A stretch of 41,252 bases of DNA. It comes from Planctomycetota bacterium. Lineage in GTDB: Bacteria; Planctomycetota; Phycisphaerae; UBA1845; CAIVHJ01. The stretch is taken from the NCBI GenBank assembly GCA_022573485.1, contig JACZTW010000001.1, positions 1-41,252 on the forward strand. Direction: 5' to 3'. This document shows, one piece after another, positions 12,469 to 40,039 of this stretch. Position 1 is the stretch's first letter. Every line of letters begins with the position of its first letter. A program made the position numbers and the translations under genes. A model generated the notes under the pieces. That model was not told the origin of the DNA. It was given only the letters and a program-made list of their open reading frames with translations, and made no database searches.

Positions 12469-12535
12469 CGTGGCGTCTGCTAAACGACGAAGTCACTTCG
12501 ACGCACCCTATATGTAGCTTGCGGTTTGGCAGCGG
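12469..12535 (-). repeat. Copy C (inverted orientation) of a ~67-nt intergenic repeat with CTGCTAAACG / CGTTTGGCAG-type terminal inverted arms
   Basis: The reverse complement aligns without gaps to 39973-40039 at about 70% identity by hand count. This includes the 20-of-21-nt block GTGACTTCGTCGTTT(A/G)GCAGAC. Confidence 0.55.
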
Positions 12536-12688: not shown

Positions 12689-13703
12689 ATGCCCACATTG
12701 TTCGGGCGACGTTACATGCGCCCGGAATTGAAGAGTTCGGGTGAGATTTACGTCGGCATCTTTGTGTTGATTCTTGCGGGTTCGCTGTGTGCCGCGCTGG
12801 TGGTTCATTCACAGGGTGACGCCCCCAAGCTGTTTGAGATCGCACCGGAGTACTCGCAGGGGCGGAAAGTGCAGGAGGCGGCGGCTGCCGCGCTGCCGCG
12901 GCTGGACTCGCCGGACTGGAGCGAAGCGCGGGATGTTCGCACGTTCACGAAGAATACGCTCTACGAGAAGATCAACGGTCGGGCAGATATCTACTTCGAG
13001 TACAATTTCAAGCTGCTGACATTCGCCAAGTACGTCAACATCCAATCGCCCGATGAGGACATTCAAGTTTATATCTATGACATGGCTGAGCCCGCGAACG
13101 CTCTGGGCATCTACAAAGCGGAGCTGTCTGAGAACCCAGTATTGGCCGAGGTGGGTCGCGAGGGTTACCGCTCCGGGCCGAGTGTGTTCTTTTGGAAAGG
13201 GCCTATGTATATCTCAGTGATGGCGTTCGAGCCCTCGCTGGCGGACATTTGCTTGACCCTGGCTCGGAAACTTGCCGAAACGATCGAAAACAGCGAACAG
13301 CTTCACTGGTCGGAAGTCCTTTTCCCCAAAGAAGATATGACTTCCGAAGGGCTTCAATACAAGGCCAATAACGTCTTCGGGCTCGATTTCTTGAATGCAG
13401 TGTATCTCGTAGAGTATTCTAGTAGTAGTGGCCGGGCCAAACTTTTTTGCTCATCAGGCGGCGAGCGAATCGACCGCCCAACAACTGCTTCAGAGCTACG
13501 TTGCGTCCTTCCGAGAGTGTGGTGAAGTGCTCAGTGAGGCGGACGGAATCGTCATCGGCGATGCCGGCGGCGTTATCGACGCCGTGTTCCGCGTGGGCCG
13601 ATACTTGGCGGGCATCAGTGAAGCAAAAGACGCCCAGGCGGCTGGCGAGCAAGCGAGGCGTTTCCGTGAACGCGTGCGACAGGTGATCGATCAATTGCCG
13701 TAG
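12689..13703 (+). pseudogene. Membrane-anchored protein of unknown function, split by a +1 frameshift in a T6 run (13443-13448)
   Basis: The frame starting at 12689 (MPTLFGRRYMRPEL..., one TM helix) reads ...YLVEYSSSSGRAKLF, then decays into 27 more codons before a stop at 13525. The next frame continues sensibly as AHQAASESTAQQLLQSYVASFRECGEVL... to 13703. Removing one T from CTTTTTTG joins them as ...KLFAHQAAS... Confidence 0.65.
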
Positions 13704-13714
13704 GACACGCAGGC

Positions 13715-14809
13715 ATGGGCAATCATTCAGAATCCACTCCTTCGAGGCAGCTTAGTCGGCGTGAGATGCTGATCCGCGGCGGGCAGACGCTCGGTGCGAG
13801 CGCGCTGGCGCTGGCCGGGGGCAAGTGGCTCTACGATACGTAGGGCGATGCGGGTCTGGCGTTTGGCGAGCCGGAGCACTTCAAGAACTACTTTGAAGAA
13901 ATCGATTTTCCCGCGAGCCTGCCGCGCATCAGCGTTGCCCGGGGCACGCCGGGGAATATCGAAAAAATGTTGCAGGCCGCCATCGGCGAACTGGGCGGCG
14001 AACAGGGCATCGGGCGGTTCATCAAGAAGGGCGATGTCGTTCTCATCAAACCGAATGTGGGCTTCGAGCGCGACCCGCGCCTGGGCGCCACCACTAATCC
14101 GGACGTGCTGCGCAGCTTGATCCGGCTGGTCCGACAGGCGGGCGCGAAGAAGATTCTGGTCGCTGACAATCCGATCGAGCAACCGGCGGCCTGTTTCTTG
14201 CGATCGAAGATCCAGGAAGCCGCCGAGCAGGAAGGCGCCAAAGTGATCCTGCCGGCGGCCGTTCATTTTCAATCGGTTCAGATCCGCGCCGGCCTGCCCG
14301 ATGCCGGTCGGCATGAGGCGCTGGGCACCTGGCCGATCTTTTGGAAACCGCTGGCCGAGGCGAACAAGGTCATCGGCATCGCCCCGGTCAAGGATCACAA
14401 TCTGTGCAACGCGTCCATGAGCATGAAGAACTGGTACGGCCTGCTGGGCGGGCGGCGGAATCAGTTTCATCAAGCCATCCACCACATCGTCAGCGATTTG
14501 GGCTTTATGATGTCGCCGACTCTGGTGATCAATGACGGAACGCTCGTCATGATGCGGAATGGACCGACCGGCGGACGTCTCGAGGACGTTAAGGAAGGCA
14601 ATGTCATCGTCGCGGGCGTGGATCCGATCGCTACGGATGCCTGGACCTGTGAGCATGTGCTCGGCCGCGATCCGGCGCATTTGACCTACCTGCAATATGC
14701 ACATGACAAGTTCGGCGGGCAACACTTCGAGCAAGCTAATCGCTTCGGGCAGCTCGACTGGTCGAGCTTGCAGCGCGAAGGCAAGATCGTCGAGACTTTG
14801 GTGGGTTGA
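13715..14809 (+). pseudogene. Tat-signal DUF362-domain protein interrupted by an in-frame TAG at 13841-13843
   Basis: The ATG at 13715 encodes MGNHSESTPSRQLSRREMLIRGGQTLGASALALAGGKWLYDT, then TAG. The same frame continues GDAGLAFGEPEHFKNYFEEIDFPASLPRISVARGTPGNIEKMLQAAIGELGG...KKGDVVLIKPNVGFE...TTNPDVL..., which is the DUF362 core. No ATG/GTG/TTG lies in frame between the TAG and the Met at 13967, yet conserved-looking sequence (RISVARG) lies in that gap. Confidence 0.7.
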
Positions 14810-14864
14810 TGGAACTCGAATCGAACGTGCAAGACGGCGCTATGATCCTATTTGCATCGGCGAT

Positions 14865-14927
14865 GCTGCTAAACGGCAAGCCACGGGCTGCGTTTTGGGG
14901 TTTGGCCTTGTCGTTTCTCGACTGCTC
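14865..14927 (+). repeat. Copy A (3' half degenerate) of the ~67-nt intergenic repeat
   Basis: GCTGCTAAACGGCAAGCCACGGGCTG matches 39975-40000 (GCTGCTAAACGGCAAGCCAACGGCTG) with 2 mismatches in 26. The remainder is more diverged. Confidence 0.5.
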
Positions 14928-14967
14928 AAACGAATGTCGTTCATCAGAGAGACAGTAGTCGATAGAC

Positions 14968-17184
14968 TTGATCAAACACGTCAATGATCGTAATCGGGCC
15001 GAGCGCCTCAGTAAGCTGTTTTGGTTGATTGCGACCGTGCCGATCGGTTTTGGTCTCATGCAGTTTACGGAGTTCGGCCTGCTGATCTTTCCCAGCGTGC
15101 GCGATTTCCTGTCGGAAAATGTGAGCGTTCTGCCGGCGGGCTTCTGGCCGATCCTGATGTTTACGTTCGGGGCGGGGTTTGGTCTGCTGGGCTTCTTCAA
15201 GTTCACGCCGCTGCGGATTACGACTGTTCGCATCATCGTACAGACTGTCGTTTTCGCGCTGTTCATGCTCTTCGTGTTCGCGACGAGCTTCACGCAGCTT
15301 AGTGATCGGCCGCGCATGCAATTCTGGCTGAGCAAGTTTCTGGAAATCGATCCATTGGTGTCGATCGCCACGGCAATCACCACGCACACAGTCTACAAAG
15401 GCTTGATTTGGTCGCTGATCTTGCTCGTGCCGACGCTGTTTCTGGGACGGTTCTTCTGCAACTGGATCTGCCCTTACGGCATTATTCACCAGTTCGTCGG
15501 CTGGCTCTTCGGCGCCAGGGACGAAAAGCAGCGCATCGAAGCGAACCGCTATCGGTGGTATTACTCGATCAAGTATTACATCCTCATCGGGATGATCGCG
15601 GCGGCGCTGTTCGGCAATCTCGCCATCGGGCTGCTGGACCCGATCTGCCTGCTGCACCGCTCGTTCACGGCGGCCATTCTGCCGACGCTCAACATGCCGT
15701 TGCAGGGCATCTTCGGCGACTACAACATGCACGTGGGCGGCTGGATCATTGGATTCATTATGCTGGCCTTCATCGGCCTGAATCTCGTCATTCCGCGTTT
15801 TTTCTGCCGCGTGTTGTGCCCGCTGGGGGCCATGTTGGGCGTTTTCAGCCGTTTCGCCTTCTGGCGGATCGAGCGCGATACCAAGAAATGTACTGACTGC
15901 GATATGTGCCTGCAAAGTTGCGAAGGCGCGTCTGACCCGCATACGCAATTGCGCATGAGTGAGTGTTTCGTGTGCTTCAATTGCATCGAGGACTGCCCAG
16001 AGGACGCGCTGAGTTTTGCCTTCCTGCCGAAGAAGCAACACGAGGTTCGTGAACCGGATCTTAAGCGGCGGCACACCATCTTCGCAGCCCTGATCGGGGC
16101 GTTGTTCTTCGGTTTTACGAAGGTAAGCGGCAAGTCCACCAAGAATTACTCGACGAAAGTGATTCGTCCCCCCGGGACGCTCGAAGAGCAAGAATTCCTG
16201 AAACGCTGCATCAAATGCGATCAGTGCATTCGTGTGTGCCCGACGAATGTGTTGCAGCCGGCGTTGTTCGAGAGTGGACTGGAAGGCCTGTGGACGCCGG
16301 TGATGAATTTCCGCATGGGCTTCTGCCAGCTCAACTGCACTGCCTGCGGGCAGGTCTGCCCGACGGGAGCAATACAGCGGATCACTGTCGAAGAGAAGGT
16401 CGGCCTCGGGTCGTTCAGCGACGATGGGCCGGTGAAGTTGGGCACCGCCCACTATGACTTCGGCCGATGCTTGCCCTGGAGCAAGAACATCCCGTGCGTG
16501 GTCTGCGAGGAAGTCTGCCCAACATCGCCCAAGGCCATTCACAGCGAGCGTCGAAAGCTGATGATCCGCGACGGCAAAATGCAAGTGGTCGGCGGCAGCG
16601 ACAGCACGATCACCCTTCGCGAATATCCCAAACCGGGTGAGGCCAGCGGCCGCGCTGCTGCGTTTGTGCCGAATCAGTTCAGCGGCGACCAGACCATGTC
16701 CTACCACGTGGAGATCGTTCGCCGCGAAGGTCGCAGCGGCTACCGCAGGATCACCGGCAATTCCACGGACTCGCTGACGCTTGACGGGCCGTTCGGCTTC
16801 ACGCCCGCTGAGGGTGATATCGCGGTGATTTACAATGAGTTCAAGGTGCCCAAGATCGATACGGAATACTGCATCGGTTGCGGCATTTGTGAGCATGAGT
16901 GCCCGGTCAACGGTGATCGTCGGGCGGTTTATGTGACCGCCGAGGGCGAAACGCGATCGCAGCACTATCTCGAGCGCAACCGCAACCGATCCGTGCGCCT
17001 GCAAAAGAGCGCCGATGCGTCGTCCGCGATGCCCGGCGACTTGAGCCTGTCCGGGATGATTCTTGCTTTGGACAAGCGAGATGGATGTGGTAGCGGTTGC
17101 GGCTGCAACCATTCGGAGACAAAGGACTTGCCGGCAGCGCCGCCGGAGGCTCCAACAATCGACTTGCGAATGTTCCTCGGTTAA
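14968..17184 (+). CDS. Membrane-bound polyferredoxin: NapH/MauN-like transmembrane module fused to several 4Fe-4S ferredoxin domains
   Basis: Multiple TM helices with two NapH-type motifs, FFCNWICPYG and FFCRVLCPLG. It also has CTDCDMCLQSC...CFVCFNCIEDCP, CIKCDQCIRVCP...CTACGQVCP, CVVCEEVCP and CIGCGICEHECP. The C-terminal tail is GCGSGCGC (17086-17106). TTG at 14968 is the first in-frame start; the first in-frame Met is at 15058. Confidence 0.85.
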   Translation: MIKHVNDRNRAERLSKLFWLIATVPIGFGLMQFTEFGLLIFPSVRDFLSENVSVLPAGFWPILMFTFGAGFGLLGFFKFTPLRITTVRIIVQTVVFALFMLFVFATSFTQLSDRPRMQFWLSKFLEIDPLVSIATAITTHTVYKGLIWSLILLVPTLFLGRFFCNWICPYGIIHQFVGWLFGARDEKQRIEANRYRWYYSIKYYILIGMIAAALFGNLAIGLLDPICLLHRSFTAAILPTLNMPLQGIFGDYNMHVGGWIIGFIMLAFIGLNLVIPRFFCRVLCPLGAMLGVFSRFAFWRIERDTKKCTDCDMCLQSCEGASDPHTQLRMSECFVCFNCIEDCPEDALSFAFLPKKQHEVREPDLKRRHTIFAALIGALFFGFTKVSGKSTKNYSTKVIRPPGTLEEQEFLKRCIKCDQCIRVCPTNVLQPALFESGLEGLWTPVMNFRMGFCQLNCTACGQVCPTGAIQRITVEEKVGLGSFSDDGPVKLGTAHYDFGRCLPWSKNIPCVVCEEVCPTSPKAIHSERRKLMIRDGKMQVVGGSDSTITLREYPKPGEASGRAAAFVPNQFSGDQTMSYHVEIVRREGRSGYRRITGNSTDSLTLDGPFGFTPAEGDIAVIYNEFKVPKIDTEYCIGCGICEHECPVNGDRRAVYVTAEGETRSQHYLERNRNRSVRLQKSADASSAMPGDLSLSGMILALDKRDGCGSGCGCNHSETKDLPAAPPEAPTIDLRMFLG

Positions 17185-17272
17185 ACTACAGTTTATGCGC
17201 AGGCAATGTCGAGCAAATCGAATCGGGCCGAAACAGAATCGGGTCAGCAGCGCAGCCTAGGAGGCTTTTCGT

Positions 17273-18502
17273 ATGCACGATCGCATGTGTGAAGTATCTC
17301 GCCGCGAATTCATGAAGACCGGATCGGCGTTGACCGCCGCCGCAGCGGCCGCGGCAAGCCTGCCCGCCGTCGCCGCGTTCGCCGAAGAAAAGCCCGCAAG
17401 AGGCGCATTGGCCATGCGCAAGTTGGGCAAGACGAACGTGGGCGTTACGATTTTGAACCTCGGCACTGCCGGCGACACGGACACGCGTCTGATGAATACA
17501 GCCTGGGCCGAAGGCGTGCGCTATTTCGACACAGCGGATTGCTATAAGGGGGGCAATAGCGAGAAGGCTGTCGGCGAATGGCTGGCCAAGACCGGCCGGC
17601 GCAAAGACATGTTCATCGTCACCAAGGATCACCCGAAGACACCCGACGAATGGGTCAAAATGATCGACGCCCGGCTCGAAGCCCTGCAAACCGACTATGT
17701 GGACTTGTTCTTCCTGCACGGTCTCGGTGGTGGGTTCAGAGGTGGCGGCGTCGAGGATCATCGGGGCATCCCGAAGGACAAGGACTGGGCCAAGGCTGCC
17801 GACACGCTCAAGAAATCGGGTAAGGTCAAGTTCGTCGGCTTCAGCACGCACACCGAGATCGATCTGCGCAGCTCGCTGCTCAACGATGCGGCCGTCGGCT
17901 GGGCGGATGCGATCATGGTGGCATCTGATCCGAGACTCGTGCGCAAGAACAGCGACTTCAACAAGGCCCTGGACGCGTGTTATAAGGCCGGGGTTGGCCT
18001 GATCTGTATGAAGGAAATGCGGGGGGCGGACCAGATTCCCGAGATTGTTCCCGAGTTCGAGAAGATGGGGCTGACCAAGTATGCCGCCGTGCTCCACGCC
18101 GTGTGGACGGACCAGCGCTTCGCCAGCATTTGCTCGAACATGCAGAACCTCAAGATCGTCAAGGAAAACTCAGAATCCGCCCGGACCTTCAAACCGTTGA
18201 CCGACGACCAATTGGGCATGCTGGATACGGTCATGGATCGATATGCCAGCAGTTTCTGCGTCGGCTGCGACGGGAGCTGCGCCGTAGCCGCTGGTACGGA
18301 CGCGGCCCTCGGCGACATCGTGCGCTACTTGTCTTACTGCGAAATGGATGGCGATCGGGCGACGGCTCGGCGGCTGTTCCGTGAGCTGCCGCCGGCGCAG
18401 CGCGACTGGTCCGGCGCTGATCTCAAGGCGGCCCAGGCCGCCTGTGTGTCGAACATCGATTTTGAGGACTATCTCGCGCGGGCCAAGACGAAGCTGGCCT
18501 AG
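17273..18502 (+). CDS. Aldo/keto reductase with an N-terminal twin-arginine (Tat) signal and a C-terminal Cys motif
   Basis: The signal is SRREFMKTGSALTAAAAAAASLPAVAAFA. The AKR core includes ...GVRYFDTADCYKGGNSEKAVGEWL... and ...DYVDLFFLHG... CVGCDGSC lies at 18257-18280. AGGAGG sits 8 nt upstream of the ATG. Confidence 0.85.
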   Translation: MHDRMCEVSRREFMKTGSALTAAAAAAASLPAVAAFAEEKPARGALAMRKLGKTNVGVTILNLGTAGDTDTRLMNTAWAEGVRYFDTADCYKGGNSEKAVGEWLAKTGRRKDMFIVTKDHPKTPDEWVKMIDARLEALQTDYVDLFFLHGLGGGFRGGGVEDHRGIPKDKDWAKAADTLKKSGKVKFVGFSTHTEIDLRSSLLNDAAVGWADAIMVASDPRLVRKNSDFNKALDACYKAGVGLICMKEMRGADQIPEIVPEFEKMGLTKYAAVLHAVWTDQRFASICSNMQNLKIVKENSESARTFKPLTDDQLGMLDTVMDRYASSFCVGCDGSCAVAAGTDAALGDIVRYLSYCEMDGDRATARRLFRELPPAQRDWSGADLKAAQAACVSNIDFEDYLARAKTKLA

Positions 18503-39972: not shown

Positions 39973-40039
39973 GGGCTGCTAAACGGCAAGCCAACGGCTG
40001 GGTCTCTCGATGTGACTTCGTCGTTTGGCAGACGTTGCG
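39973..40039 (+). repeat. Copy B (reference copy) of the ~67-nt intergenic repeat; able to form a 10-bp stem CTGCTAAACG / CGTTTGGCAG
   Basis: GGGCTGCTAAACGGCAAGCCAACGGCTGGGTCTCTCGATGTGACTTCGTCGTTTGGCAGACGTTGCG. Related copies lie at 12469-12535 (minus orientation) and 14865-14927. Confidence 0.55.

Follow-up and report, generated by a model that had tools for sequence, protein, structure and literature searches.

A lineage-wide amber codon in a DUF362 gene and a frameshift in the adjacent DUF6599 gene of a planctomycete: probable recent inactivation of a gene pair

An amber codon that directly follows an export leader, with a conserved domain still open in the same frame behind it, may be a very recent nonsense mutation, a base-call or assembly error, or a stop codon that is read through. 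Which of these applies to the twin-arginine (Tat)-DUF362 gene of the window (the whole 41,252-nt stretch of planctomycete DNA that was analysed) is the question raised by this locus. The window comes from a metagenome-assembled genome (MAG) with 345 contigs, of which it is the largest; this MAG has 3.37 Mb, 81% completeness, 5.8% contamination, and 59.7% G+C. Very probably the locus holds an ordinary, recently inactivated gene pair and not a case of stop-codon recoding: a genuine AAG-to-TAG nonsense change in the DUF362 gene is accompanied by a frameshift in the DUF6599 gene before it, and the first two genes of a module would thereby have lost their function recently. The features are listed in Table 1.

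Table 1. Features of the interrupted gene pair and of the adjoining gene, with positions in the window.
Feature	Position	Strand	Basis or remark
DUF6599 gene, part before the frameshift	12689..13442	+	Pfam PF20244, E 2.6e-41; aligns to '...GRAKLF' with the L007 and L006 orthologues
T6 run, one T more than in L004 (T5); frameshift lesion of DUF6599	13443..13448	+	Comparison with relatives
DUF6599 conserved C-terminal ~85 codons in the +1 frame (ORF 13428-13703)	13449..13703	+	Ends with TAG 13701-13703
DUF362 gene, 5' part, 42 codons	13715..13840	+	Twin-arginine-type leader (SRREMLIRGG and h-region), start of linker
In-frame TAG, codon 43 of the DUF362 gene	13841..13843	+	AAG (Lys) in the nearest intact relatives
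DUF362 frame after the TAG, 321 codons and TGA 14807-14809	13844..14809	+	Open, almost unchanged
Met85, first canonical start after the TAG	13967..13969	+	Start of the 280-aa protein in public gene calls
Polyferredoxin (Fer4_5/NapH-like, 738 aa), intact	14968..17184	+	Pfam matches

The reading frame of the DUF362 gene agrees closely with a preliminary description of the locus. The ATG at 13715 begins a run of 42 sense codons that encode the peptide MGNHSESTPSRQLSRREMLIRGGQTLGASALALAGGKWLYDT, and the TAG comes next, in the frame and at the coordinates that had been given; the frame is also open behind the TAG as stated, only that the 322 codons counted earlier are 321 sense codons and a stop. 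As had likewise been claimed, no ATG, GTG, or TTG occurs in frame between the TAG and the ATG at 13967, where the ORF listed for this region starts. The frame in the window is thus interrupted at codon 43 where that of the orthologues runs through. In the conceptual read-through protein, residues 109-312 match the Pfam DUF362 model (PF04015) at positions 1-199 of 200, with an E value of 4.6e-38 and a score of 131.7 bits against a gathering cut-off of 24 bits; the score was 133.6 bits in a search of the whole genome.

The stretch between the TAG and Met85 had been described as apparently conserved domain sequence, and alignments with homologues bear this out. G44, A46, F60, and R71 are invariant in both a 24-homologue and a 34-homologue alignment, and Y59, P66, and S73 are invariant in the former and at least 90% conserved in the latter. 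Conserved positions after the TAG are unchanged with the exception of L56F, which falls in a column that is at least 90% conserved.

The part in front of the TAG has the appearance of a twin-arginine leader. The motif S-R-R-E-M-L-I and a weakly hydrophobic stretch, TLGASALALAGG, can be read directly in its sequence, and all 42 residues can be aligned with the N-terminal ends of intact homologues, in which R15 and R16 are invariant (24- and 34-sequence alignments). When the 42-residue peptide was compared with Pfam and NCBIfam, no Tat profile was matched; PF10399, a Rieske Tat-signal model, is matched by two homologues, of which one exceeds the cut-off (29.4 bits against 24).

More than 2800 homologues of the read-through protein were found. 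Among the matches listed, most are about 345-395 aa long and span 95% or more of the query together with its leader, and those with a named source are Phycisphaerae or Planctomycetota MAG proteins. Whether orthologues carry an N-terminal extension at all had been posed as a check on the preliminary description; they do, since homologues align from residue 1 and keep the RR motif without exception.

The residue opposite the TAG, which the same description had left to be looked up, is Lys in the nearest intact relatives, L004 and L005 (94% protein identity). Codons 41-44 read GAT ACG TAG GGC in the window and GAT GCC AAG GGC in both relatives; the TAG is therefore one A-to-T change away. By this comparison AAG is the ancestral state of codon 43. 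Across the family the column is variable (K/E/V/T/S/R/D/Q/I). A six-frame search of 30 related genomes recovered 17 orthologues, all of them free of stops, and among the 31 genomes searched only the window's own was flagged with one TAG. The first of the explanations proposed earlier, a very recent nonsense mutation, fits well with these results, AAG being present in the nearest intact relatives and TAG in this lineage only. JGI metagenomes and GTDB representative genomes were also scanned with a lineage-signature pattern allowing any base at the T of the TAG; neither a match nor an intermediate haplotype was found in these two collections, from which the lineage is absent.

The same TAG is carried by 14 other contigs (L020-L033) from at least ten samples and several assemblers. 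They were found through the 90%-identity cluster of the 280-aa fragment, to which further variants of 280 aa and 309 aa from NCBI, ENA, and Logan belong, and they come from one NCBI MAG (GCA_022574055.1), ten ENA assemblies with three naming series, and three Logan runs. Together with the window they form a lineage set of 15 sequences, which have a mean pairwise identity of 99.84% and 17 variable sites over a 2121-column alignment. Given these 17 sites, L020-L033 and the window are distinct strains or samples. The layout is the same in all of L020-L033: a 278-aa DUF6599 fragment, a 58-aa or 91-aa ORF, and a 280-aa or 309-aa DUF362 fragment. The 42-aa leader ORF is called at every one of these loci except L032.

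This layout shows that the TAG does not stand by itself. The DUF6599 gene immediately upstream is split over two frames, with the Pfam domain in the ORF 12626/12689-13525 and the C-terminal part in the second ORF of Table 1, which gene callers split off as 58-aa or 91-aa ORFs. Past the T-run, the zero frame continues for 25 wrong-frame codons and ends at TGA 13523-13525. The run reads CTTTTTTG in 15/15 lineage sequences, compared with C-TTTTTG in L004, TCTTC in L018, and AGTTC in L019. The displaced C-terminal motif, 'AHQAAS...GIVIGDAGGVIDAVF..GRYLAG', aligns with L004, L006, and L007, and the gene is intact in orthologues such as the 343-aa copy of L007 and the copy of L006, which runs off its contig end at 351 aa. 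The terminator of the displaced frame is shared with L004, L005, and L019, and lies 11 nt before the DUF362 ATG. The preliminary description, which was concerned with a single odd codon, had overlooked this extra T; with DUF6599 broken as well, both members of a gene pair have been hit.

The T6 run and GATACGTAGGGC occur together in 15/15 lineage sequences, so that, measured against the intact orthologues L004/L005, both AAG to TAG and T5 to T6 are real changes in the DNA. In one species-level lineage, the two lesions have reached fixation or at any rate predominate. A distance of 400 nt separates them, in neighbouring genes of the same operon, and this proximity, along with an adjoining polyferredoxin that aligns over nearly its whole length, was counted in favour of inactivation, although the significance of two adjacent lesions is only qualitative. 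The polyferredoxin and its L007 orthologue share 72% identity over an alignment of 689 residues (13-700 of 738).

The likely course of events can be described as follows. In an uncultured, Phycisphaerae-like planctomycete lineage, a single-base change would have turned the AAG (Lys) of codon 43 into TAG, and a one-base insertion in the T-run would have cut off the conserved last ~85 residues of DUF6599. Translation of the DUF362 gene would end after the 42-residue leader peptide, and the full-length exported protein would not be made. The first two genes of a module of DUF6599, DUF362, polyferredoxin, and aldo-keto reductase would in this way have become non-functional recently. The reality of the two lesions, the ancestral AAG, the intactness of the relatives, and the ordinary use of TAG as a terminator in this genome are observed; the loss of function and its recency are what we infer from them. 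A second intact copy could lie in the unassembled part of the 81%-complete MAG, and intact alleles may persist as a minority in the lineage.

The age of the break can be approached through the substitutions that have accumulated. In a comparison with L004 and L005, 26 sites are unique to the window; they change 13 codons synonymously and 10 non-synonymously, and most of them fall in the first 280 nt of the DUF362 gene, a region that is fast in the intact L004 too. Codons 85-364 contain one non-synonymous and eight synonymous window-unique changes, which suggests that they diverged mostly under purifying selection and hence that the break is recent. Variation within the lineage (8 non-synonymous and 9 synonymous of the 17 sites) is too scarce to show relaxed selection. 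The appearance of the fully open 321 codons is ambiguous; it is the look of a very young pseudogene and equally that of a gene still in use.

In its similarity to these two relatives, the DUF362 gene forms a mosaic. Most 90-nt blocks of nucleotides 361-1095 share 96-100% identity with L004 (92% in block 541-630), whereas over nucleotides 1-180 the closer relative is L005, at 90-92% against 82-84% for L004. This pattern suggests recombination among closely related strains.

The explanation that competes best with inactivation is that some function is retained without recoding. Re-initiation at CTG48, at TTG56 (in the L033 variant), or at ATG85, or else rare near-cognate readthrough, would supply DUF362 protein at a low level and mostly without its leader. 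We consider this unlikely. It would account for a downstream frame that is intact in 15/15 sequences and for the excess of synonymous changes in codons 85-364, beside which codons 44-84 have four non-synonymous changes to one synonymous, including L56F at a nearly invariant column. However, the first 84 codons are also fast in the intact L004, where 8/12 unique non-synonymous changes fall, so the pattern in codons 44-84 is not specific to the window lineage. Codon 56 is TTG in L033, and gene callers do call a 309-aa product there; yet a leaderless product would presumably be in the wrong compartment, as the listed homologues keep the RR motif, and the partner gene DUF6599 is broken as well.

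What a shortened product would lack was considered on an AlphaFold2 model of an intact relative, P0002 (pLDDT 86.7, pTM 0.83). The model has a leader helix at residues 15-39, a pLDDT below 50 at residues 39-42, and a low-confidence stretch up to about residue 50 (mean ~52 for 41-50), which places codon 43 in a predicted flexible linker between the export leader and the mature DUF362 domain. A well-ordered domain follows the linker and includes a strand at 72-77 (RISVAR) and a helix at 79-101; Met85 lies inside this helix, past the strand. Therefore, if the model is right, a product started at Met85 would be without the core strand 72-77 of a predicted LarA-like fold. It would also miss the start of helix 79-101 as well as G44, A46, Y59, F60, P66, R71, and S73, which argues against residual function from this start. 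The LarA-like similarity comes from a fold search with the P0002 model, in which the best PDB matches were the LarA-like structures 9q3j, 6c1w, and 7s91 (E 1e-6 to 1e-5) at 9-15% identity and a TM score of ~0.4; a sequence search of the PDB gave no match.

Readthrough, the third of the explanations proposed at first, finds no support in this genome. TAG terminates 258 of its 712 long training ORFs (36%), which extends to the genome what had been argued from a few genes of the window, namely that TAG is a genuine terminator and has not been reassigned genome-wide; only two weak TAG-interrupted candidates were found in the whole genome, in disagreement with a use of TAG as a sense codon. These figures come from a codon-usage scan that discriminated poorly, antisense frames scoring about as high as coding frames and the codon-43 site itself being missed, and we rely on the scan only for how often each stop codon is used and how rare TAG-interrupted candidates are; it is no census of pseudogenes. 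Three specific means of decoding were considered and rejected. No tRNA-CUA is present among the 39 tRNAs found by ARAGORN in the 81%-complete genome, the missing part of which could hold a suppressor. The best PylS_Cterm match in the same incomplete MAG reached 25 bits against a cut-off of 178 bits, and similar matches occur in control genomes. RNA folding predicted for 126 nt around the TAG and behind it proved ordinary (z = -1.1 versus shuffled sequences).

There is only a very slight chance that both interruptions are bypassed at a low and possibly regulated rate, with ribosomes reading through the amber at codon 43 in the linker and slipping by +1 at CUU UUU U, giving a throttled, exported DUF6599/DUF362 redox module, or that the leader peptide and a re-initiated DUF362 body function as two distinct products. 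Even less credit can be given to programmed recoding in the full sense, in which the TAG would be decoded by a suppressor tRNA, by pyrrolysine, or by context-dependent readthrough, the T-run would be passed by +1 frameshifting or by transcriptional slippage, and both genes would be regulated to a low level. Such a scheme would suit the presence of both lesions, each with an open frame downstream, in every lineage sequence, and if tRNA-Leu slipped by +1 from CUU to UUU, the ancestral ...KLFAHQ... would be recovered exactly, as read from the sequence. It is opposed by the lack of a tRNA-CUA or PylS match, the ordinary fold behind the TAG, the common use of TAG as a terminator with almost no TAG-interrupted coding frames, and the single uninterrupted frame of both proteins in every relative. 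The T-run does not resemble a prfB-type +1 site either. It reads CUU UUU UGC, where CUU is followed by neither a stop nor a rare codon, and the sequence 5' of it, GGCCGGGCCAAA, is not Shine-Dalgarno-like, so that the slow or stop codon and the upstream stimulator which we take to be features of such sites are both missing. A run of six T is short for efficient transcriptional slippage.

Least probable is a sequencing or assembly artefact, in which case the true genome would have five T's in the run and keep a sense codon at 13841-13843: although the source MAG is fragmented and incomplete and its DUF362 gene joins L004-like with L005-like stretches, the identical lesions recur in 14 contigs of differently built assemblies (NCBI MAG, k141- and scaffold-named ENA, Logan) that differ from the window at other positions, which makes an assembly or base-call error very unlikely and, as far as assemblies show, refutes the earlier suggestion of one; neither an A-to-T substitution nor an error in a 6-nt homopolymer is typical of systematic short-read errors.

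Recent inactivation thus remains the preferred reading, and inactivation by nonsense mutation plus frameshift is an ordinary, already known kind of event. As in other bacterial nonsense and frameshift pseudogenes, a stop change and a homopolymer insertion are found in genes that are intact in all relatives, and the frame is still open. The present case differs from the usual ones in that two adjacent operon genes are affected and both lesions are present in every sampled member of the species, and the loss of function is again deduced. Within the Tat-leader subgroup of Pfam DUF362, which is common in Phycisphaerae and Planctomycetota MAGs, the gene resembles the ~363-aa homologues in holding the domain from end to end, but the window copy is interrupted at codon 43. 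We know of no function for the DUF362 family.

Three other systems share single features with the locus. In amber recoding (pyrrolysine, suppressor tRNAs, TAG reassignment), an in-frame TAG is likewise followed by an open, conserved frame, whereas the site here is a variable Lys/Arg/Glu linker position in a genome with neither a PylS nor a tRNA-CUA detected and with TAG as a frequent terminator. Tat hitchhiking of the MelC1/MelC2 type also places a short ORF with a twin-arginine leader directly before a leaderless enzyme ORF; in contrast, the split here is a lineage-specific stop in a gene that is fused in every relative, with no conserved two-gene arrangement, and the second ORF, which reaches its first start codon only after 41 codons, would miss a core strand. 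The LarA (lactate racemase) superfamily of nickel-pincer-nucleotide enzymes, with DUF2088, is related by fold matches and by clan, since DUF362 is placed in Pfam clan CL0471 as is the LarA N-terminal domain (PMC11770544). The low identity and TM score of the DUF362 model, however, make this a likeness of fold from which no function is transferred.

The main value of the analysis is a negative result: an amber codon behind an export leader is real and ordinary, being the product of neither recoding nor sequencing error. In public protein collections, the 280-aa and 309-aa 'DUF362' proteins and the 42-aa, 58-aa, and 91-aa ORFs (the P0003 cluster; P0123-P0131, P0136) are fragments of two broken genes. 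The species may be regarded as a naturally occurring double knockout that affects the two leading genes of a widespread, uncharacterised Planctomycetota module. Therefore, DUF6599 and DUF362 would be dispensable in at least one environmental lineage, which offers a comparison point for studies of the module.

The order of DUF6599, Tat-DUF362, NapH-like polyferredoxin, and one or two aldo-keto reductases (12689-18502 in the window) is kept in L006 and L007, the DUF362 proteins of which are 67-68% identical to that of the window. This four-gene order looks like one uncharacterised functional module, judging by gene order. The polyferredoxin starts with TTG 14968, and its relatives start at the equivalent position.

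A second TAG, at 14956-14958 and directly ahead of the polyferredoxin start, shares the frame of a 50-codon ORF overlapping the DUF362 stop. It was considered as a sign of a further broken gene and rejected, as it lies in a ~150-nt spacer that is absent from L005. This spacer (14810-14967) holds a small intergenic repeat with its core at about 14865-14927, GCTGCTAAACGGCAAGCCAC, and further copies of the repeat are found at 12469-12535 on the minus strand and at 39973-40039 on the plus strand. The spacer with its repeat is present in the window lineage and in L004, and is absent in L005, L006, and L007, in which the genes overlap or nearly abut. Since an inverted copy lies just upstream of DUF6599 and another copy in the spacer, the two broken genes are bracketed by copies of the repeat.
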